A stretch of 64,000 nucleotides of DNA from Bdellovibrionales bacterium. Lineage in GTDB: Bacteria > Bdellovibrionota > Bdellovibrionia > Bdellovibrionales > JAGQZY01. Each line of letters begins with the position of its first letter. The stretch's first letter is position 1. The notes beneath the pieces were generated by a model. That model did not search any database. It was not told the origin of the DNA and was given only the letters and a program-made list of their open reading frames with translations. The stretch spans positions 74,199 through 138,198 of the forward strand of contig JANPLN010000025.1 of the NCBI GenBank assembly GCA_031426555.1. Reading direction: 5' to 3'. Made by a program: the position numbers and the translations under genes. Positions 36,179 through 47,427 of this stretch are shown piece by piece.

Positions 36179-37780
36179 TTAGTCTTCGCACATAGGAATG
36201 GAAACCTCGTTAGCTCCGGCTGTATTCCCATCGATAAAATCTTCATTAAAATAAAGCGACGAGTCCGTGGAGTTGGGATCCAAAAGCTGATCCAGCTTTC
36301 GCCCCTCATTAAAAAACTTAGTACAATAAAACGAGTACTTTGCATATAAACAATCACCCATCTCATCATAAATTTTTTCGTTTAACTGCAAAAGTTCATC
36401 TCTCTTACCTGCGTCGAGTCGTTGAAGACGCGCTTTAAAAATATTGCTTCGTTGATCAAAACGCGCGCTAAAACTCAATCGCGCCGGCTTTAATGGGGCG
36501 ACTAACAATGTCGACGGAAGCATTTTGTAATCGATGTAGTTGGAATAGAAACCGGGCATGTAAAAAACAAATGGTCCACGTGTACGCATCGCTACCGAAA
36601 TACAGCGCGGGGTTTTTGGAAAACGATTTCGCAGTTCATGCTGCACGACTGTTTCGGTAACGGGCAAACTCATCACCTCAGCAATTTCATCAAAAGCTTC
36701 AGATTGGAAAATCGAATTCATAAAATGAGTATTGAAGTCTTCCCATTGAACTTGGGTGGCCTCGGCAAGTAAACTTTCATACTTTTCTTGCTCCGGGGCC
36801 TGCACCTGTTTCGCGTAGATCATTGTAAACCAATCTCCGATTGCAGACTGCCGCTCGTTTTTATCGTCGAATACACAGGCCGGGCTAGGCTGCTCATTGA
36901 GATTTGCAATACAGTGCGCGTTTGTTCCGCCGGCGTACTTGTTGTCGATGGATTGGCTCTGTCCCATGAACCCCCATATGTTGGAGCTTTTTTCAACGGC
37001 CATGCTGATAGCTCCCATTAAACGCTGATCGGCGCTTAAAATACCAGTGCCCGAATTACCGTGAATCACTTCGGTATCACACACCAGAGACACCAAAGGA
37101 TTCTGTGCGTGCACATAATACGTCGAGTACAAGCTATTCATTTTGGAGGTGCAAGAAATTTTTCGGATTTTTCCCGTGATGGAAAATGTTGTTGAGTTGC
37201 CATTGCTTTGAATAACCGATCGAGAAAAATAAACAGGAAATGCGCTGATCACTGTGTCTTTGGGAATTCCCTCTGTTTTTATACTCACTGGCGCACGGGT
37301 GGAGTTAGAAACCAGCTCGAGAACAGCCCAGTCGGGATGCAAGGACGCTGTAGCTGTATAGGCAGCACTCAAATCTAAAACCGACTTGCACTTTATTTTT
37401 TCTGCGGGTTTGTTGAGAGTCGGCGGAAAAAATACTGTGATGTTGCTACACGCAGCTCCTTTGCTTAAGGCATTGTCGGGCAAACAGTGCCTGTTGGTTA
37501 AAACTTTGTTGGGGGCAATCAGTGTTTGGGAACACGTTCCCCCCTCATAACTTGTCGAGTAATAGGACTTTTTGGTTTCTATAAAAAATAATCCGCCTGA
37601 AGCCTCTGGGCAGCCACCGGGAGTTTCGCAGTTGACTGAGAGGCTACTTAAAACCTGCTGCGCTTGTTGTTCGTTAGCAAAATCAAAGCGGTAAACATGT
37701 TTTGGCTTTTCCGCCTCCAGACATTGGGTCAGCAGGGGAAGGGCTAAGCAGAAAAACAAAAAGCGTGTGCGTAAAAACAT
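36179..37780 (-). CDS. Trypsin-like serine protease, probable lipoprotein
   Basis: LTQC lipobox-like; LTNRHC (His), PDWAVL (Asp), HGNSGT (Ser). Confidence 0.8.
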   Translation of the reverse strand: MFLRTRFLFFCLALPLLTQCLEAEKPKHVYRFDFANEQQAQQVLSSLSVNCETPGGCPEASGGLFFIETKKSYYSTSYEGGTCSQTLIAPNKVLTNRHCLPDNALSKGAACSNITVFFPPTLNKPAEKIKCKSVLDLSAAYTATASLHPDWAVLELVSNSTRAPVSIKTEGIPKDTVISAFPVYFSRSVIQSNGNSTTFSITGKIRKISCTSKMNSLYSTYYVHAQNPLVSLVCDTEVIHGNSGTGILSADQRLMGAISMAVEKSSNIWGFMGQSQSIDNKYAGGTNAHCIANLNEQPSPACVFDDKNERQSAIGDWFTMIYAKQVQAPEQEKYESLLAEATQVQWEDFNTHFMNSIFQSEAFDEIAEVMSLPVTETVVQHELRNRFPKTPRCISVAMRTRGPFVFYMPGFYSNYIDYKMLPSTLLVAPLKPARLSFSARFDQRSNIFKARLQRLDAGKRDELLQLNEKIYDEMGDCLYAKYSFYCTKFFNEGRKLDQLLDPNSTDSSLYFNEDFIDGNTAGANEVSIPMCED

Positions 37781-37789
37781 AGAAACCTC

Positions 37790-37818
37790 AAAAAAAAAGC
37801 CCTCATTCTGGAGGGCTT
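37790..37818 (-). terminator. Intrinsic terminator after the vWA lipoprotein gene
   Basis: Minus strand aagccctc-cagaat-gagggctt plus T-tract. Confidence 0.8.
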
Positions 37819-37841
37819 GGTTAAACATTCAATATTTTGAT

Positions 37842-39209
37842 TTATCTAGAACCACGATTACAGTAACGAACTGTGATCTTGTTGCCTTCACGAGGGCAAC
37901 CGCGAACCAGGCGAACGTAGCCACCTTGTTCTACTCTGTGCTCAACACGGCGTCCATCAACAGTCACTGCTTCTACGTTGGCTGCATTCAGCTCTACGGC
38001 TTTGCCATTGGCATCTTTGATTTGTACTCTTTGATAAAGTGAGCTGTTCATACCTTCGGCTATGGAGGCACCGGCGGCAGCGATCGAGGCACTGGCTTCG
38101 GCAGAACTGTAAGCAGTTGTTGTTGAAAGCGATGCAAGGTCGAAGACTTTGGACTTCACATTGTTTTGTCCGAGGGCGCCTAAAAGATCGATAATTCCGC
38201 GACCGATTTCGTTTTGTCCACCAGCAGGAACTCCGTTTTCGCCTGTGTAAACAAAGGCTGACATGTGGATATTAAAGTGTTGGCTCAGGCTGATGATCTC
38301 TTGTGCTAGCGTTTGGCTATAGCCGCGGCCGCCGTCAGAAACGTTCATGTTGATACTGTAGTTTGTAACGTCTTGTACGCAATGTCTTTTGCGAGCGATT
38401 TGCTCAGACGTCATGCCGCGTTCGTCGGAACGAATTCTAGCGTAAACCGGAAGCGTCGAAGGAACTTCGCCAATCGTACAAGCGTCGTTCTCATCGCCGA
38501 TAAAGTGAATATTTAGAATGTCTTTATCTTGCATTCTCATCAAGCGACGGTACTGGTTATTTTTTAAAACAGCCATAAGATTTGCTGTTAACAATTCTCC
38601 ACCATCAGAAATTCCAGGTGAGTTGTCTGTTTGCATATGAAGAATTTTATTTTTTAAACGAATTAAGTTATTACGACGAGTTGTTTCGGTGTGGTCAAAA
38701 CGGAGAACATCGAGATCTTCGCTGGCGTATTTAAAAAAGTTATTTCCGCGAAGAGCTGAATGATAACTTTCGGCCGAGTGACCCGTGATCACGCCCAAGT
38801 GGATGGGAATTTCGCGAGCGATGGTGTTTTCGTACATTTCGATCAAACCTTTTAGCTGATTAAAACGTTCGGTCACATTGGATTTTGATCCATCCATTGC
38901 AACGACAACATGAACTGTCTTGGGAGCGTTGTTAGAATATTCATAGTTATAGTCTTGGCACTCGCTCTGTGGAGGTGGAGTGTTTGGCTGTGGCTGCTGG
39001 CACGTGTTGTTGCGACGGCAGTCGTAAGGGGGCTGACTGGGTGTTGGATTGTGGGTGGGCGGCTTTGTCCGTGGATTGTTTGTTCGCTCTACGGGTTGCA
39101 CGGGTTGAGCTTGCGTCGCTGTAAACTTTGATTTCGAGCATGCTATCACGGTGGGCAGCACGATCAAAAGCAACAGGCTCTGTGCGATCTTGGTTTGTAA
39201 GCTCAACAT
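37842..39209 (-). CDS. Lipoprotein with Pro/Gln-rich linker and vWA-like domain
   Basis: GGAGGA SD; lipobox VIAC; VVVAMDGSKS (MIDAS DxSxS); FIGDENDAC. Confidence 0.7.
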   Translation of the reverse strand: MLSLQTKIAQSLLLLIVLPTVIACSKSKFTATQAQPVQPVERTNNPRTKPPTHNPTPSQPPYDCRRNNTCQQPQPNTPPPQSECQDYNYEYSNNAPKTVHVVVAMDGSKSNVTERFNQLKGLIEMYENTIAREIPIHLGVITGHSAESYHSALRGNNFFKYASEDLDVLRFDHTETTRRNNLIRLKNKILHMQTDNSPGISDGGELLTANLMAVLKNNQYRRLMRMQDKDILNIHFIGDENDACTIGEVPSTLPVYARIRSDERGMTSEQIARKRHCVQDVTNYSINMNVSDGGRGYSQTLAQEIISLSQHFNIHMSAFVYTGENGVPAGGQNEIGRGIIDLLGALGQNNVKSKVFDLASLSTTTAYSSAEASASIAAAGASIAEGMNSSLYQRVQIKDANGKAVELNAANVEAVTVDGRRVEHRVEQGGYVRLVRGCPREGNKITVRYCNRGSR

Positions 39210-39473
39210 AATTCCTCCAGGGTTTATGGCCCTTTTAAAAGTTCTTCGTTTAAAAGATGTGCAAACTTCATCCCACACTATGGGACCAGCTAAATACATG
39301 AAATGACGTAGTTTTTAAAAAGTGGCCGTAGCGACTTCGCAAAATATGTCACTTTGGCATGATAGGAGTGCGCGAGGATTGTCGCTTTTTTGCCCAGAAC
39401 GATGACGGTTCTATAACAAATACATCACGGTCGATTTACCTGGAACATGTGTTTTCCGTTAGAAATTAATTCG

Positions 39474-40199
39474 TTAGTACAAGCAGCGCAGATACTCAAT
39501 CACAGTTTGCTGCCAACCCATTTCCAAAGCGTCACATACAAGAGCATGACCGATGGACACTTCCTTCACCATGGGGATGGTTTGCACAAAGTGTTTGAGA
39601 TTGTGCAGATTGAGATCATGGCCGGCGTTGATTTCGAGTCCCATGGAGTCTGCCAGCTGGGCACACTGAAGATATTTGGCCGTGGTTTCTTTTTGCGCCG
39701 GCGAGCCGAAATGATCGGCATAGGCTTCGGTATAAAGTTCGATGCGGTCCACGCCCATGTCGCGAAATTCCAAAAGTTCCTGAGTGGTGATATTTTGTGG
39801 GTCCACAAACAACGACACACGAATGCCTTTTTCCTTTAACAAAGGAACGGCTGTTTGCAGGGTTTTTTCGTTGCCCTGCATGCGCCAACCAGCGTTGGAG
39901 GTCAGAACATGGGGAGGGTCTGGAACCAGGGTGCACTGAGCCGGCAGGATATCGGTGCACTTGATGAGGAAGTCGTTTGTGGGATAGCCCTCGATGTTTA
40001 GCTCCACAGAGATGTGGGCCTTCAGCAGCTCCACGTCACTCCAGCGAATGTGCCGCTCATCGGGCCGAGGATGCACGGTGATCCCATGGGCGCCATACTC
40101 AATAATCTTCAGCGCCGCCTGCAACACATCGGGCGTATTCCTGCCCCGAGCATTCCGAATCGTAGCCACTTTATTTACGTTTACGCTGAGTTTTGTCAT
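39474..40199 (-). CDS. pdxJ: Pyridoxine 5'-phosphate synthase
   Basis: LSVNVNKVATIRNARG, ITVHPRPDERHI, NAGHDLN, EVSIGHAL. Confidence 0.97.
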   Translation of the reverse strand: MTKLSVNVNKVATIRNARGRNTPDVLQAALKIIEYGAHGITVHPRPDERHIRWSDVELLKAHISVELNIEGYPTNDFLIKCTDILPAQCTLVPDPPHVLTSNAGWRMQGNEKTLQTAVPLLKEKGIRVSLFVDPQNITTQELLEFRDMGVDRIELYTEAYADHFGSPAQKETTAKYLQCAQLADSMGLEINAGHDLNLHNLKHFVQTIPMVKEVSIGHALVCDALEMGWQQTVIEYLRCLY

Positions 40200-40262: not shown

Positions 40263-41723
40263 CTATGCCACCCTTTTTTCTGGGTGCGGATTGTCTTCAT
40301 CCAAAATATAATCACAATCTCTACATTTGAGGATGTATACGCCTTTACTGTTTTTATTCAAAAAAAGTAAGCCGTGACCATTTGGGCAGACGTCTTCGTC
40401 GTCACTATGAAGCTCTGAGTGCCTCTTTAAATTACGGACCTCAAACAGGGTCACCTCTTCGGTTTCGAAACCTTTGAGTACAATTGACTTTATTGGAATG
40501 AATTCCAGAGTAGCTAGTAAATCAGTCTGCTTATTTTTGATAGCAATAACAGTCTCTTTAGTTAGAACAATACCATTAGAAGGCGCTATGCCGTTTATTC
40601 GAGACGCTAGATTAATTACTCTGCCAATGGCTGTGTAGGATCTCACGTGCAAATCGCTTCCGTAAAATCCAACTGTAGCATTCCCTACCGAAATTCCCAC
40701 TCTAACTTCAAAAGCGCCATTCCATAATTCTTCATATATCTTTTTTTTCGAATGTAGTCGATCTAGTACTTCAAAAGCGCAAGATAATGCTCTTTCAATA
40801 TAGTCATCTTGTGGAACAGGATTGTTGGTAAAACCCATAACGCCGTCCCCCAGAAACTTATCTACGGTAATATCATACTTCAAAAATAGTCCCATTACGT
40901 CTTCAACATACATCGAAATCACTTTCTGCATTTGAGACGGACTTATCGTTAACAATTTTTTTGTTGAATCTTTAATGTCGATGAAAATTGCGCATATATC
41001 GGACTGGTAAAGTTCAGCTTTAATGTCCAAACTTCCATCGATAATGCTTTTAATGATTTGCGGGCTAAACTGTTTACTTAAAGTTTTTAGCTTCAGCGCC
41101 TCGGAAGATTTTTTATCGATAATTAAATCTCGGTTCAAAATTTCATTTTCTAATTCAAGACGTAAGACGAATTCGCGATCATTAAGTCTTTCAAAAAAAA
41201 GTCGACCTACGGTGCAAATTGTCGCAACTGAGAGCAAAAAAACTGAGTTTAAAAGAAAGTAAGTAGTACTTAATTCGTTGATCTTGAGTAGTCCAACGCC
41301 TAAAAAAGGAAAAACTATTAGGGCCATACATACAAAGTAATAACTCCACGTGAAGCGCAAGCCAGTTGCAACACCCACCATTATAAGAATTAGGCCAACG
41401 TAGTATGGAGAGTCCGCTGGCAAAATGGCTAGCATAATTTGAATTGGCAGCGCGCAGGAGGCGATGAAGACTACAGCGTACTTCTCAACGCGAGGCAAAG
41501 ATCTCGCAGACTCGGAAATAATTTTATTTAAAACGAAAAATACTGCAATCGAACCAATTCTTAAAAGTAAAAAAGCTCCGAAGTGATCGCGATACCAAAC
41601 GTAATCTGCGATTGAGAAAAGTAGATACAAGGGCAACACATACATCGAAGATGCAAAAGATACGAACGTGACAATTACGTCAGCACGTTCCTTATTTTTT
41701 CTCTCAATAGCTTCTGGTGCCAT
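40263..41723 (-). CDS. Membrane-sensor class III adenylate/guanylate cyclase with C-terminal zinc ribbon
   Basis: 5-6 N-terminal TM helices; FIDIKDST, VDKFLGDGVM, YTAIGRVINLASRI; C-terminal CPNGH..CRDC. Confidence 0.9.
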   Translation of the reverse strand: MAPEAIERKNKERADVIVTFVSFASSMYVLPLYLLFSIADYVWYRDHFGAFLLLRIGSIAVFFVLNKIISESARSLPRVEKYAVVFIASCALPIQIMLAILPADSPYYVGLILIMVGVATGLRFTWSYYFVCMALIVFPFLGVGLLKINELSTTYFLLNSVFLLSVATICTVGRLFFERLNDREFVLRLELENEILNRDLIIDKKSSEALKLKTLSKQFSPQIIKSIIDGSLDIKAELYQSDICAIFIDIKDSTKKLLTISPSQMQKVISMYVEDVMGLFLKYDITVDKFLGDGVMGFTNNPVPQDDYIERALSCAFEVLDRLHSKKKIYEELWNGAFEVRVGISVGNATVGFYGSDLHVRSYTAIGRVINLASRINGIAPSNGIVLTKETVIAIKNKQTDLLATLEFIPIKSIVLKGFETEEVTLFEVRNLKRHSELHSDDEDVCPNGHGLLFLNKNSKGVYILKCRDCDYILDEDNPHPEKRVA

Positions 41724-41727
41724 ATAA

Positions 41728-43152
41728 TTAATTCTTTAGTACACAAAATAAATTCACATTATTTGGCTCGGACTCTACTGTGCACTGCGAGCCGTTGATA
41801 TTAAAAATTCGCTTTAAATCTTCATGACTTCTTAAAATCAAATACCAATCGAACAATGCCAACATTCCAAACGTATTTGGCGAACTGGTGTTAAAGTTTC
41901 CAATTACGAGAGAGCCGCCGGGGCTTAGAGACTTGAACAAACTTTTTGCAGCCCTCGTTGCCACTGCGTCCGAAAAATAGTCAAAAAGGCCAGCGGAATA
42001 AATAAGATCGAAATCTTCATCAATCCCATCGACAATGATTTCTTTAATGTTTTTCTTGCTTAGGTGAATCGTGAGTTTTTTATCAGCCTCGAGCAAGCAC
42101 TTTCTAATATTCTGTTGAGCAAACTTCAAAGCGTCTTCATCTTGATCAAGTAGAAAAAACTCAACACGATCCAAGTCTTCTTGATCTAACTTATTGATTA
42201 CATATTTTATTTCCTCAGCTGGCCCACAGGCAACGGACAAAATCGAAACCTTATTTTTTTCGCGAACGGTTGTTATGATTTTTTCGGAAAGAAACTTGAC
42301 TCTATTCCTAACAGCCGAAGGCTCTTCATGTAGCTCAACTGCCCGCTCCATACACGAACCAAACAAAGAGTTCGCAAAACTATCTGATTTATAGATGATA
42401 TTCATCATCTCAAAATCTCCAGCGTAACCTCGCGGTTTTGAGAAACTTCGCAATGTAAAAGGCGATTGAAAGATAAACTTCCCTAGCCGATACCTATAAT
42501 ATTCAAAAACGATCTTGTTGCTCTCAAAGTCGCCATGCAAGACTAAACTATTTAAGACGCTATTATTCGACTTGAGCTTTTTTTCGATTGAACGTCCAAC
42601 GATATCGATAACACACTTTTCTGCTGTCACTTTTTTAGTGGAATTATCGTAGTGACTTACACTCATTTTTTTTACTTGCTCTTCCATTTCGTTAAGCCAA
42701 ATATAAAGATCATCGATATAATTTTTTACAGAAAAATCAATGCCTCTGTATCTACTGTACCGCTCCTCAACATCTCTAACAATTTTGTGAGAATTAAAAA
42801 TCTGAAATACTTCGTCGACTGGAAAAAGAGCGCCAAAAACCTCTGCGCCATAAGCGAAAAGATTTCCTTTTTGTTCTTTTCTTTTTATCTCAAGCGTAAA
42901 CTCTTCGACTTTAAAGTCGTCGCCAAAAAATAGCTCCACATCGATTGTACCGCCGAGATCTATATTGTGTTCGGCTTCAAAAGCTAACCCAAAAAGACTG
43001 TAGTTAGTTAAGCTATACCGCCTTCCATCGTGATGAAGGAGCAAATTATCCAAACCAACGGCGTATCTTTCTTGCCTTATCTTGATCTCATGAACTGTAC
43101 TGCTGCTGATCTTAGCTTTTTTGTTTTCCACAATTACTCCTGGTCTCCTCAT
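41728..43152 (-). CDS. PhcB-like class I SAM-dependent methyltransferase with N-terminal PilZ-like domain
   Basis: QSPFTLRSFSKPRGYAGDFEMMNIIY; ILSVACGPAEE; FDLIYSAGLFDYF; LVIGNF; DWYLILRS; N-terminal RQER..NYSLFG. Confidence 0.75.
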   Translation of the reverse strand: MRRPGVIVENKKAKISSSTVHEIKIRQERYAVGLDNLLLHHDGRRYSLTNYSLFGLAFEAEHNIDLGGTIDVELFFGDDFKVEEFTLEIKRKEQKGNLFAYGAEVFGALFPVDEVFQIFNSHKIVRDVEERYSRYRGIDFSVKNYIDDLYIWLNEMEEQVKKMSVSHYDNSTKKVTAEKCVIDIVGRSIEKKLKSNNSVLNSLVLHGDFESNKIVFEYYRYRLGKFIFQSPFTLRSFSKPRGYAGDFEMMNIIYKSDSFANSLFGSCMERAVELHEEPSAVRNRVKFLSEKIITTVREKNKVSILSVACGPAEEIKYVINKLDQEDLDRVEFFLLDQDEDALKFAQQNIRKCLLEADKKLTIHLSKKNIKEIIVDGIDEDFDLIYSAGLFDYFSDAVATRAAKSLFKSLSPGGSLVIGNFNTSSPNTFGMLALFDWYLILRSHEDLKRIFNINGSQCTVESEPNNVNLFCVLKN

Positions 43153-43228
43153 AATATCGGCAAGACACCCTGGAAAATTAACGTCCTAGTCTTTAGTCTG
43201 AAAAGTTTATCTAGCAAAAGGACGATAT

Positions 43229-44056
43229 GTGTCTATGGAAAAAGCTGCAACATCTGAGTCCATTGAGGAATCCTTTTCTTGGAAGTTTTTTGTGATTATT
43301 TCCGCCATGCATCTGGCTGCACTTGCGGGTATTATCTTTTTCACTACGAAAGGCGCCTTACTCACCTGGGCAGTTAGTCATTTTTTCTTTATTACTATCG
43401 GCGCATCCATTGGCTTGCATAGGTACTTTTCCCATCAGAGCTTTAAGGTTAAAACTATCTACATGGATGCTTTCTTGCACCTTGCCGCGACACTTTGTTT
43501 TCAAGGAGGTCCGATATACTGGGCCACTGCCCACCGATCACACCATAGATACTCTGAAAAATACGGAGACCCTCATAGTGCCAAGAGAGGTTTCCTATGG
43601 TCGCACCTCCTGTGGCTTATGTTCGAACGCCCAAACGGCTTTTCATATTTAAAATCATTAAAGTATAGCCCTGATCTTCGAAAAAATAAACTAACAAACT
43701 TTTTTGAAAAGCATTACCTAAATATAAATTTGTCTTTTTTGCTCATACTTTTAATTGGTTGTACACTTTGCACAAATTTTTCGCTTTTTTTCTTTCTTGG
43801 TCCCGTTAGAATAGTAAGCGTATGGCACTGTACTTGGCTCATAAATAGCTACGCGCATGGAGCGCGGATTTGCACAAGAGATACACAAATCAAGAATTCT
43901 AATCTTTTATGTATTTTAGTTGGGGGAGACGGCGAGCACAGTTTCCACCATAACTTTCCGAATTCCGCGAAACATTCGAACAAACGATTTTCGCTTGACT
44001 ACGGCTACGCGACGCTGAAGGCCCTCAAAATGTTAGGTTTGATTGAGTTTCGATAA
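43229..44056 (+). CDS. Membrane fatty-acid (delta9-type acyl-lipid/acyl-CoA) desaturase
   Basis: His boxes HRYFSH, HRSHH and HSFHH; DPHS..RGFLWSH; INSYAH. Confidence 0.92.
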   Translation: MSMEKAATSESIEESFSWKFFVIISAMHLAALAGIIFFTTKGALLTWAVSHFFFITIGASIGLHRYFSHQSFKVKTIYMDAFLHLAATLCFQGGPIYWATAHRSHHRYSEKYGDPHSAKRGFLWSHLLWLMFERPNGFSYLKSLKYSPDLRKNKLTNFFEKHYLNINLSFLLILLIGCTLCTNFSLFFFLGPVRIVSVWHCTWLINSYAHGARICTRDTQIKNSNLLCILVGGDGEHSFHHNFPNSAKHSNKRFSLDYGYATLKALKMLGLIEFR

Positions 44057-44069
44057 TTTCTGGATTCGT

Positions 44070-45782
44070 TCAATCTACCAGTTTATTTTTTTTCGGATAC
44101 GTCAGACAAATTTCAAATCCGTACCCTTTGTTTCTGTACGTCATCCCACCACCAACTTCGGATAATCGTTTTTTAATCATCCATAACCCAAGACCAGAGC
44201 TTCCACTTGTTATCCCTCGTGCAGATAAATTTTTTAAAATTGTTTCGCTTACTCCCCCCGAGTTATCACTTACAGTTATTTTAAATTCCTCCAATAAGTT
44301 CTCCAGCTCGATGCTTACTTCGGCGTCCACTGAATTTCTCTCGGCAGCTTTAAACGCATTCAACAAAATTTCTGATAACGTGTTTTTAAAATCGTCCGTA
44401 AAATAATATACATACCCGTCGAAACTATCCGCGACCTTGATTGATATTTTCTTAAAAATACTACCCATTTCCAAACAGACTTCCTCTAAATTGGCCTTAA
44501 GGGTTTTGACTGAATACCAACTTGCATTGGCGTTTGATTTGTCATTAGATAAGTTCTCGAAAATGGTGTCGAACCTTTTTGAAATTAACAGAATACGACT
44601 TTTGTTTATAGTTTCTTCCTGAAGCGAAAAATTTAAACTCGTTATCGGAGCTTTTAAGTCATGAATTATGCTTTTCAAATGTTCGTTGGAGGAATTAATT
44701 TTTTGAAGCAACTTCCTTTCCGACTCTAAGTTACCTTCGATTCTCTTTGTCTTCAAATTTATTTTATAAACGTTTCGAACAACATTTATTATCTCAAAAA
44801 TCATAACTACAATAACAAGCCCAGCTAAGTTTGCATAGCCCTCTCGGTAAGCCTGCCCCCTGTAAACATCGAAAAATGCGATCGTCAGAACAATCAAAAA
44901 GTTTGCACGTACCCCTAGTTTCAGGTTTTTTTTGCAAACAGCGTATAACAAACCGCCAACAATCACAATAAACGCCATAGAAAGCATAAGAAATTGATCG
45001 GTAGCTCTGTGATTTAAAGAAACAACTATGCTAACGGCAAGAAAAATTACATACACGTTTCTAAATTTCTTACTAGATATTATTGGAATTTTATCTAGCA
45101 TGTAAAAGTAAGCAATTAAAAACGTGCCAACCATTTGAATTAGGTGTGCATAGCCTATTTCTATGGAGACAAAGTAACCTGGAACGTGAGTAAGCATCAG
45201 CATGGTTATACCAATACCAAGCCCTAACAATTTAAATTGGCGTACATTCATAACGAATAAAACAATCGTTCCTATAATCGATAAGAACAGACTAATCGTA
45301 GCGGAAAGAATATAGCTTAAATCAAAAAGAAACTGGTCTGGAGGAGATTTACTAACAGCGAAGGGAAATTTATTTAGCGAGATATAGTATTCTAACTGAA
45401 CTGTTGACTGGAATGTGACTTTTTTAGAATGCTTTAAAAGATCACAATTAACTAATATCCTATCAAGAACTGACTTTAGGTGCCATGCCTGATCCATTTC
45501 GTTTGAATAAATTCGCGTCGTGTCCACAAAAACTTCCTGCCTACCTTCATAGGTCTGAGGAAAAACTATGTATCTGGCGCGGCCGTCTCGACACACGCTC
45601 TGAATTGTTTGGCTCTCAATGGTCAGGCGGTAGCTACCATCGGTCTGTTTGGCCCATTGCTCCACTACAGACCAATTCGGGTCGGGCTCGTGCGGGATTT
45701 GTTGCACCCCCAATAAATGATAAAACATCATCAACGCACCAAGAGCCCACTGGTCTAATTGAGTTAAAAACACAGACATCAT
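44070..45782 (-). CDS. Membrane sensor histidine kinase (periplasmic domain plus about 7 TM)
   Basis: H-box IHDLKAPI, N-box EILLNAFKA, G1 DNSGG, G2 GSSGLGL. Confidence 0.88.
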   Translation of the reverse strand: MMSVFLTQLDQWALGALMMFYHLLGVQQIPHEPDPNWSVVEQWAKQTDGSYRLTIESQTIQSVCRDGRARYIVFPQTYEGRQEVFVDTTRIYSNEMDQAWHLKSVLDRILVNCDLLKHSKKVTFQSTVQLEYYISLNKFPFAVSKSPPDQFLFDLSYILSATISLFLSIIGTIVLFVMNVRQFKLLGLGIGITMLMLTHVPGYFVSIEIGYAHLIQMVGTFLIAYFYMLDKIPIISSKKFRNVYVIFLAVSIVVSLNHRATDQFLMLSMAFIVIVGGLLYAVCKKNLKLGVRANFLIVLTIAFFDVYRGQAYREGYANLAGLVIVVMIFEIINVVRNVYKINLKTKRIEGNLESERKLLQKINSSNEHLKSIIHDLKAPITSLNFSLQEETINKSRILLISKRFDTIFENLSNDKSNANASWYSVKTLKANLEEVCLEMGSIFKKISIKVADSFDGYVYYFTDDFKNTLSEILLNAFKAAERNSVDAEVSIELENLLEEFKITVSDNSGGVSETILKNLSARGITSGSSGLGLWMIKKRLSEVGGGMTYRNKGYGFEICLTYPKKNKLVD

Positions 45783-46298: not shown

Positions 46299-46733
46299 TT
46301 AATTACTCATTGCCTGAATAGCAGCAGCATAAAGCATGATCTGCTTGACCATGGCTAACAGCCCGTTGGCTCTACTTGGTGAAAGATGGGATTGAAACCC
46401 CAGATCTGAAATAAACGTTGGGGGATTTGCTAAAATGTCGGATGGCTGGGCCAATGAATACACCCGAAGGAGAATGGCGACCAGTCCCTTCACGATCATC
46501 GCATCGCTGTCTGCGAAAAGTTCGATTTGCCCAGCGGGGTTTTTTTGAGCATGCAGCCACACCCGCGACTGACATCCTTTGACTAAAAATTTATCATCAC
46601 GATAGGCCACTGGAAGGTCGGGCAAACTTTTACCGAGATCGATCACGTATTTATAACGCTCTTCCCACGACTTAAAACGTGTAAAATCGGCTACGAGTTT
46701 TTGTTGTCTGTCGGCCACTTCGCTCATACTCAT
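46299..46733 (-). CDS. sufE: Cysteine desulfuration protein SufE
   Basis: WEERYKYVIDLGK, VKGCQSRVW, DSDAMIVKGL, LSPSRANGL. Confidence 0.95.
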   Translation of the reverse strand: MSMSEVADRQQKLVADFTRFKSWEERYKYVIDLGKSLPDLPVAYRDDKFLVKGCQSRVWLHAQKNPAGQIELFADSDAMIVKGLVAILLRVYSLAQPSDILANPPTFISDLGFQSHLSPSRANGLLAMVKQIMLYAAAIQAMSN

Positions 46734-46737
46734 GCAA

Positions 46738-47427
46738 CTACCGGAGTTTGGCTTTTTCGGCAAGGAGTTCTTGATGCAGTTGTCGTCCTTTTACACCTAA
46801 AAGTTCCATCACGGCACTCTCACCTAAGCCGTCCACATATTGCTTCGCTTCGGCGTAAAACGTGCGCGCTTTTTCGCGGTCTTTCAAAAAAAACTCCTCC
46901 GGCCACGTTGCGTTTTTAGTAACTGCCGTGTCCTGCAAATACTCCTTGGCGCGAGCGACTTCTTCCAGCGTCCACCCTTGGTGATGCAAAAAATCCTCAA
47001 GCAAAGCCCACTCCAGCAACCAGGTCCACTCCTCAGACTTGTTCCAATAGTAGGCGCCCGCTTCGGCGTAGCTACTTTTGCAAAAAAAAGTACGGCACAC
47101 GGTGGGGCGATTATCCCAAATTTTGCACTGCCCATTTTGTTTTTGAAAAAACGTACACAGCAAAGTCGCATCAGTACCAAACCCCCACTTGCCTTTTTTG
47201 GCAAAATACTTTCGGTAGCGAATGTTAGGTGTGAGCCCTAAAATTAAAAAGTCCCACTCCTGCATCAACTCGTCAGAGAAGGTTTCGGAATTTACAAATC
47301 CGCCCACTAAAAAATTCGCGATGAACGGGCGATAGGTGCAGCATTTTAAATCCACAGAACAGCGCGAGCAATCCACCGCGGACTCGCGCACAGAAATTTG
47401 GGTTAATAAGTGTTGGTAATAGTTCAT
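46738..47427 (-). CDS. YkgJ-like CxxCxxCC (putative Fe-S/Zn) protein
   Basis: CSRC...CC, LCTFF..C.IW..RP.VCRTFFC. Confidence 0.8.
   Translation of the reverse strand: MNYYQHLLTQISVRESAVDCSRCSVDLKCCTYRPFIANFLVGGFVNSETFSDELMQEWDFLILGLTPNIRYRKYFAKKGKWGFGTDATLLCTFFQKQNGQCKIWDNRPTVCRTFFCKSSYAEAGAYYWNKSEEWTWLLEWALLEDFLHHQGWTLEEVARAKEYLQDTAVTKNATWPEEFFLKDREKARTFYAEAKQYVDGLGESAVMELLGVKGRQLHQELLAEKAKLR

Follow-up and report, generated by a model that had tools for sequence, protein, structure and literature searches.

Does a relative of Bdellovibrio turn a lipid of its own making directly into cyclic AMP (cAMP)? The question is raised by three genes in a 64,000-nucleotide stretch of a Bdellovibrionales bacterium genome (contig JANPLN010000025.1, positions 74,199 to 138,198; hereafter the window), which encode a methyltransferase, a membrane-anchored nucleotide cyclase immediately downstream of it and a divergently transcribed fatty-acid desaturase. 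In Ralstonia, PhcB makes a 3-hydroxy fatty-acid methyl ester quorum signal, which is sensed by the kinase PhcS encoded downstream; the products of Phc quorum sensing are methyl 3-hydroxymyristate or methyl 3-hydroxypalmitate. A first-pass annotation of the window, made from the letters alone, had proposed the same synthase-then-receptor layout with a cyclase replacing the kinase relay. Given a synthase relative, a sensor-cyclase and a desaturase that have common closest relatives, we consider it likely that this organism converts a self-made lipid directly into cAMP. The specific reading that we favour, and hold to be reasonably probable, is that the synthase adds a methyl group to a fatty acid, in this case probably an unsaturated one, and that the resulting ester binds the six-helix domain of the cyclase and changes cAMP synthesis directly.

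The three open reading frames (ORFs) lie where the first-pass annotation had placed them, and their features are as follows (aa, amino acids; SAM, S-adenosylmethionine; c-di-GMP, cyclic di-GMP):

41728..43152, minus strand: PhcB-family class I SAM methyltransferase, 474 aa ORF (probable true start GTG 43131, giving 467 aa)
42835..43080, minus strand: PilZ-type beta-barrel at the methyltransferase N-terminus, residues 25-106, RxxR...NxSxxG; c-di-GMP binding putative
40263..41723, minus strand: receptor cyclase, 486 aa, comprising a PhcS-type six-helix membrane sensor, coiled coil, class III nucleotide cyclase and zinc-ribbon-like tail
41139..41723, minus strand: six-helix sensor domain, approximately residues 1-195; D40, R55, Y107, G110 and F162 correspond to PhcS D39, R54, Y106, G109 and F162
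40419..41018, minus strand: class III cyclase domain, residues 236-435, with D249, K289, D293, T364, N371 and R375; closest solved fold P. aeruginosa CyaB
40314..40388, minus strand: zinc-ribbon-like tail, C446-x3-H450...C467-x2-C470
43229..44056, plus strand: membrane fatty-acid desaturase, 275 aa, with three intact His boxes; divergent from the methyltransferase

By annotated ORF bounds the methyltransferase lies 4 bp from the cyclase and 76 bp from the desaturase. An AGGAG stands just upstream of GTG 43131, and the 467-aa form equals the length of a 92%-identical relative; the methyltransferase therefore probably starts at this codon, which would widen the divergent gap to approximately 97 bp, so that the earlier figure of some 76 bp holds for the annotated ORF only.

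The methyltransferase and its receptor

The motif SPF..R..SKPRGYAGDFEMMNIIY, on which the PhcB assignment had been based, is present in the methyltransferase translation. Named Ralstonia, Cupriavidus and Paraburkholderia loci served as PhcB and PhcS references. The Ralstonia chuxiongensis locus (L226; L, G and P numbers are our handles for loci, genomes and proteins) has four genes in phcBSRQ layout, two of whose products NCBI names PhcB and PhcS, and it retains R22, L161 and R154 of strain GMI1000, the residues mutated in GMI1000 PhcB, PhcS and PhcQ, respectively (PMC6989110). Over 258 aa the window methyltransferase and this PhcB share 27% identity (E 5e-31); profiles of cyclase-linked (n=43) and kinase-linked (n=33) synthases align over 427 columns (probability 100, E 1e-101), and many of its homologues are labelled '3-hydroxypalmitic acid methyl ester biosynthesis protein' by JGI. 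By these comparisons the window methyltransferase is a distant homologue of PhcB over its full length and not a close orthologue; with this qualification, the earlier assignment is sound as to homology with the named Ralstonia protein.

Its predicted structure (predicted local distance difference test score 92) combines a class I methyltransferase domain with a beta-barrel and a helical bundle, the top structural matches being 3ocj (Z 20.7) and small-molecule methyltransferases, with no CheR or PilZ chain among the matches listed for the whole model. The best sequence match among solved structures is nonetheless a CheR (E 2.6e-5, residues 284-432), the Pfam CheR model scores 24 bits against a cut-off of 27, and no NCBIfam model reaches its cut-off. 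It is conceivable, then, that the methyltransferase controls the cyclase as a protein, either through CheR-like methylation of the receptor or through cytoplasmic binding as between CqsA and CqsS. That CqsA binds and inhibits CqsS (PMC13729885), that the putative B. bacteriovorus counterpart Bd3071 is labelled CheR-like by eggNOG (PMC12546842) and that the two genes are so tightly coupled are all consistent with such control. The CheR match is weak, however, compared with that between the PhcB-type profiles, and the leading structural neighbours act on small molecules; moreover, one synthase family partners both kinases and cyclases, which have only the membrane domain in common, and desaturase-synthase tandems exist without an adjoining receptor. 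We regard control at the protein level as distinctly unlikely.

The N-terminal barrel is, by sequence and model together, of PilZ type: the Pfam PilZ model gives E 0.045 for the window synthase and, above its cut-off, E 6e-9 for the relative L059, Atlas features score 0.91 for PilZ, and the beta-barrel is seen in the predicted structure. The canonical PilZ motif for c-di-GMP is RxxxR...D/NxSxxG, than which RxxR is one residue short. RxxR...NxSxxG occurs in 36/45 cyclase-linked synthases, that of the window included, and RxxxR in 6/45; a recognisable PilZ-type motif is thus found in 36/45 of these proteins as against 7/34 kinase-linked ones. On Enterobacter plasmids (NZ_CP134637.1 and NZ_CP134634.1), a gene annotated as a type I polyketide synthase was also observed to contain a domain akin to the catalytic region of the window synthase.

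As regards the receptor, the predicted structure places six helices ahead of a coiled coil, in keeping with the five or six membrane spans first suggested. A sensor profile built solely from 73 Burkholderiales PhcS sensor regions ranks the window cyclase first of the 6125 ORFs of its genome (E 5e-5; runner-up 0.037), a ranking which controls for hydrophobic bias, and profile-profile comparison gives a probability of 99.2 (E 6.5e-20, 178 columns). The residues D40, R55, Y107 and G110 are all kept in 46/46 cyclase-type sensors, and their counterparts occur in 40, 41, 38 and 38, respectively, of 41 kinase-type sensors, PhcS included. The six-helix domain is, on this evidence, homologous to the PhcS sensor, and a resemblance previously put forward from motifs is substantiated. 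No Pfam model exceeds its cut-off in this region (MASE8 matches weakly), and a search of solved structures with the sensor profile gave no significant match by sequence (best E 1.8). Since none of the alignment columns shows a conserved His, a heme-binding sensor was discounted.

The first membrane bundle of human AC5 can be overlaid on residues 1-214 (Z 14.9, which for helical bundles is only modestly above noise level; root-mean-square deviation (rmsd) 3.4, 210 aligned), and the whole receptor model superposes on M. tuberculosis Rv1625c. The sensor family is broad (3242 clusters); among 30 hand-picked proteins the same sensor is also fused to GGDEF, SpoIIE and hybrid proteins, and once occurs with an alpha/beta-hydrolase. 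Examples of such fusions are L271:5303-6715, L273:6155-7291, P0225 and P0268 (SpoIIE phosphatase; GGDEF domain; Ser/Thr kinase plus cyclase; alpha/beta-hydrolase plus kinase). The match to known anchors and the breadth of the family would also suit an ordinary cyclase anchor, with the desaturase a bystander and the linkage historical rather than reflecting a shared ligand, and so would the timing of the B. bacteriovorus desaturase, which is out of phase with the synthase. Against this, the polar residues within the membrane do not vary between PhcS and the cyclases, synthase-sensor adjacency persists across phyla and output swaps, and several distinct desaturase clades adjoin the synthase, so that an inert anchor is, in our estimation, very unlikely.

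The sole output domain found in the receptor is a Pfam Guanylate_cyc domain (E 3e-13), which superposes on the CyaB structure with Z 25.1 and rmsd 2.0 over 191 aligned residues. All six residues expected of an adenylate cyclase are present, as first read from the window: the metal-binding D249 and D293, the K289/T364 pair, and N371 and R375. K289 and T364 align with DKFVGD and YTIIG of CyaB, Lys together with Thr or Asp at the purine-specifying positions being the rule for adenylate cyclases. The zinc-ribbon-like tail is likewise confirmed, its cysteines C446, C467 and C470 being kept in 42, 43 and 39 of 43 relatives; no NCBIfam model matches the cyclase. In 11/43 relatives (including L057, L059-L061, L063, L066, L070 and L072) Thr replaces the purine-specifying Lys, and these proteins may make another nucleotide or none. 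The source genome has four ORFs for putative binding proteins of cyclic nucleotide monophosphates (cNMPs), and cNMP-binding genes adjoin the pair in three loci.

Recurrence of the pair and its desaturase neighbours

A synthase family match was found in 67/401 sampled genomes of the phylum, including 23/26 of genus g10, whose proteins carry Bdellovibrio names and to whose order the source genome belongs; the expectation that such a system would be unusual in a Bdellovibrio-like predator is therefore not upheld. The phylum loci comprise 60 regions, representing 61/71 matches outside the source genome. In 45/60 of them a sensor-cyclase lies directly downstream of the synthase, and in two more it is divergent, so that the proposed layout clearly recurs, while a PhcS-type kinase directly downstream occurs in 0/60. 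The best 80 metagenome loci among the matches listed include 32 with a sensor-kinase and 10 with a sensor-cyclase, and in a first count 73/80 Burkholderiales-type loci carry a sensor-kinase. In a quick-method tree the kinase-linked synthase L091 nests among cyclase-linked ones, so that the output has been swapped more than once.

Genome-wide, a profile built from synthase-adjacent sensors finds a match in 59/67 synthase-positive genomes as opposed to 33/334 synthase-negative ones; synthase-sensor coupling is strong but not obligatory. Variants were also noted: a sensor-only ORF lacking a cyclase domain follows the synthase in L052 (6373-6987) and L244 (204 and 219 aa), and in L067, L069, L073 and L058 the synthase has in its vicinity a protein that combines a PhcS-type sensor with a kinase ATPase domain, which in three cases also stands beside the cyclase.

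The window desaturase matches Pfam FA_desaturase (PF00487; E 1e-15) and has the His boxes HRYFSH, HRSHH and HSFHH. In 21/60 phylum loci the synthase has a desaturase no more than 5 kb away, where approximately 0.6 would be expected from the 199 desaturases of 67 genomes, although these counts overstate the enrichment as kin are not independent. The linked loci (13/18 in genus g10, 8/42 elsewhere) span nine genera and seven families, and at least three desaturase clades sit beside the synthase in differing arrangements. No desaturase was found near the synthase in 111 kinase-type loci (81 of which have full flanks), the count for kinase loci of Burkholderiales type being 0/79. The triad of methyltransferase, cyclase and desaturase thus recurs as anticipated, less often than the pair, and with the desaturase optional. 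The source genome encodes three further desaturases, whence the window copy looks dedicated, and the linkage hints at an ester other than methyl 3-hydroxymyristate or methyl 3-hydroxypalmitate.

At single loci the neighbours are a second desaturase (L038:7714-8553), a fatty-acid hydroxylase (L051:8644-9621), a thioesterase (L043:6394-6885) and an esterase (L037:5838-6821); G145 also has two desaturases nearby. In genus g10, desaturase-synthase tandems without an adjoining receptor were observed at L053, L239-L243, L245 and L246. Five genomes with such tandems (G217, G256, G268, G331 and G394) contain no sensor match at all, and could represent signal producers without a receptor.

A variable cassette and its B. 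bacteriovorus counterpart

The pair and the desaturase stand between conserved flanks, together with a fourth gene:

44070..45782, minus strand: 570-aa membrane histidine kinase that falls within the low-GC stretch and has a sensor of another type than PhcS
39474..40199, minus strand: pdxJ, a conserved gene that borders the variable cassette on one side
46299..46763, minus strand: sufE-like gene, the conserved flank on the other side, matching the SufE gene of the same-genus locus L059

The stretch 40263-45782 has a GC content of 38.4% compared with 46.0% for the genome, and only 2/536 windows of 5.5 kb are equally low; the AT-rich island reported at first is real and includes the histidine kinase. 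A recent island was rejected as the whole explanation because the methyltransferase is GC-poor relative to its flanks in 41/46 loci and the pair is widespread. Directly downstream of the receptor cyclase lies pdxJ, with no PhcR- or PhcQ-like genes, and scans of the locus for promoters, terminators and cAMP receptor protein sites returned nothing beyond chance level. Beyond pdxJ are two long, secreted-looking ORFs, 37842-39299 and 36179-37828 (both minus strand), the former without a Pfam family above cut-off. The histidine kinase, whose sensor does not match the PhcS-only profile, has a 24%-identical homologue directly upstream of the synthase in another family (L050:8875-10590).

Trees of the synthase, the sensor and the desaturase, built by quick or FastTree methods and subject to long-branch warnings, each group the window with L036, L038 and L039 and then with L035, which represent three other families. 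In G253, of the same genus as the source genome and with the same sufE/pdxJ flanks, the pair is only 23% (synthase) and 17% (sensor) identical to that of the window and no desaturase is present. Since the three genes share their grouping while a different allele occupies the same site, the cassette appears to move and be replaced as a unit. Lineages seem to exchange it in the manner of a signalling dialect; together with the desaturase link, this exchange would point to chemically distinct dialects. The same-genus G370 has no synthase match, but its pdxJ ends a contig and the locus may be cut off. Alleles from different clades repeatedly occur beside pdxJ (L072, L100, L059 and L036).

Proteins identical to those of L027 are deposited for B. 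bacteriovorus as CAE80836.1 ('Regulatory protein') and CAE80837.1 ('Probable adenylate cyclase'), and the orthologous pair of that species carries generic annotations only. In L247 the gene order is desaturase, small protein, C92 amidase, synthase and cyclase, which agrees with the annotations of Bd3068-Bd3071 (PMC12546842) and with that of bd3072 (PMC6717892), from which we infer that the B. bacteriovorus synthase and cyclase are Bd3071 and Bd3072. Bd3071 protein is high in attack phase and drops approximately five-fold inside prey, from a log2 value of 7.29 to 5.04 at 3 h, before recovering to 7.27 at 5 h (PMC12546842); Bd3072 was not found in the supplementary protein data consulted.

An abundance which follows the predation cycle would also be expected of a private sensor of life-cycle or lipid state, whose ester stays in the cell's own membrane, or derives from prey fatty acids, and reports growth stage. 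The PilZ-type domain could tie the synthase to c-di-GMP in such a role, and group predation is reported not to have been observed in laboratory Bdellovibrio (PMC3189940). Different alleles at one chromosomal site within a genus, and the existence of solo receptors, nevertheless fit intercellular signalling better, and we consider a private sensor unlikely.

The proposed route from lipid to cAMP and its known relatives

In the reading that we favour, the desaturase of the window system would probably tailor a fatty acid, which the methyltransferase would convert to a diffusible methyl ester. This ester would bind the membrane bundle near D40, R55 and Y107, and helix 6 and the coiled coil would relay the change to the cyclase dimer, whose output would be cAMP, without a kinase relay, to be read by the cNMP-binding proteins of the genome. 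The methyl-ester product, the binding site, the relay and the cAMP output are all inferred from the homologies described above. Of the outcomes that would have counted against the first-pass proposal, none of those open to computation was observed.

Several observations weigh against this proposal, in addition to the non-independence of kin. In a quick-method tree, from which three rows without the motif and partial ORFs were excluded, PhcB proper falls into a well-supported clade that is distant from the window synthase; together with the low identity of 27%, this means that the substrate may differ from that of PhcB. A desaturase is absent within 5 kb in 39/60 loci, and seven genomes of genus g10 have no PF00487 match apart from the linked desaturase, a pattern suggestive of a housekeeping role. 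In B. bacteriovorus the abundance of the Bd3068 desaturase is highest at 4 h, when that of Bd3071 is low (PMC12546842), and the cyclase has Pro instead of the catalytic Asn; all six cyclase residues are retained in just 19/43 relatives. The coupling has exceptions in both directions, with 8/67 synthase-positive genomes lacking a sensor and the 33 synthase-negative genomes possessing one, and solo sensor-cyclases account for 7/20 of the orphan-sensor loci examined. A broader proposal, that predatory Bdellovibrionota have a lipid quorum-sensing language of their own, made up of swappable cassettes that hold a c-di-GMP-gated synthase, a desaturase or hydroxylase for tailoring and an adenylate cyclase as receptor, is put forward only tentatively and seems to us doubtful as a whole.

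The locus nevertheless provides, for predatory bacteria, a candidate for a signal of their own making and for an input into cAMP, and since candidate ligand-making enzymes lie beside the cyclase, the role of six-helix cyclase anchors becomes directly testable. Full-text literature searches, whose coverage largely excludes subscription journals, found no published description of the synthase-cyclase pairing.

The closest known system is phcBSRQ of Ralstonia, with homologues in Cupriavidus and Paraburkholderia. As there, the window synthase is followed by a homologous six-helix sensor with the D, R, Y, G and F residues in common. The window system differs in that a class III cyclase bearing a zinc-ribbon-like tail, and not HisKA/HATPase, serves as the receptor output, in the lack of PhcR- and PhcQ-like genes from the operon, in the distance of its synthase from PhcB, in the desaturase that often adjoins cyclase-type loci and none of the Burkholderiales-type kinase loci, and in the PilZ-type motif that is seldom recognisable in kinase-linked synthases. 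As its output is not a kinase, we class the window system as a variant of PhcB/PhcS and not as a member.

In overall architecture and catalytic fold the receptor resembles Rv1625c, the catalytic domain of CyaB and the mammalian membrane cyclases, but unlike these it is encoded with a candidate synthase of its own ligand. By description, Vibrio CqsA/CqsS is likewise a synthase-receptor pair with a lipophilic signal and a six-helix reader; CqsA, a PLP (pyridoxal phosphate)-dependent enzyme, belongs to a different class from the window synthase. According to a 2025 review (PMC12414865), no modulator of the known six-helix cyclases has been mapped to a transmembrane site; in an engineered CqsS-Rv1625c chimera, however, a class III cyclase has been brought under the control of a six-helix quorum receptor (PMC4821796). 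That chimera is artificial; should the broader proposal prove true, the window receptor would be a natural instance of a six-helix cyclase anchor whose cognate ligand is genetically encoded, and one with a structural relationship to mammalian cyclase anchors.

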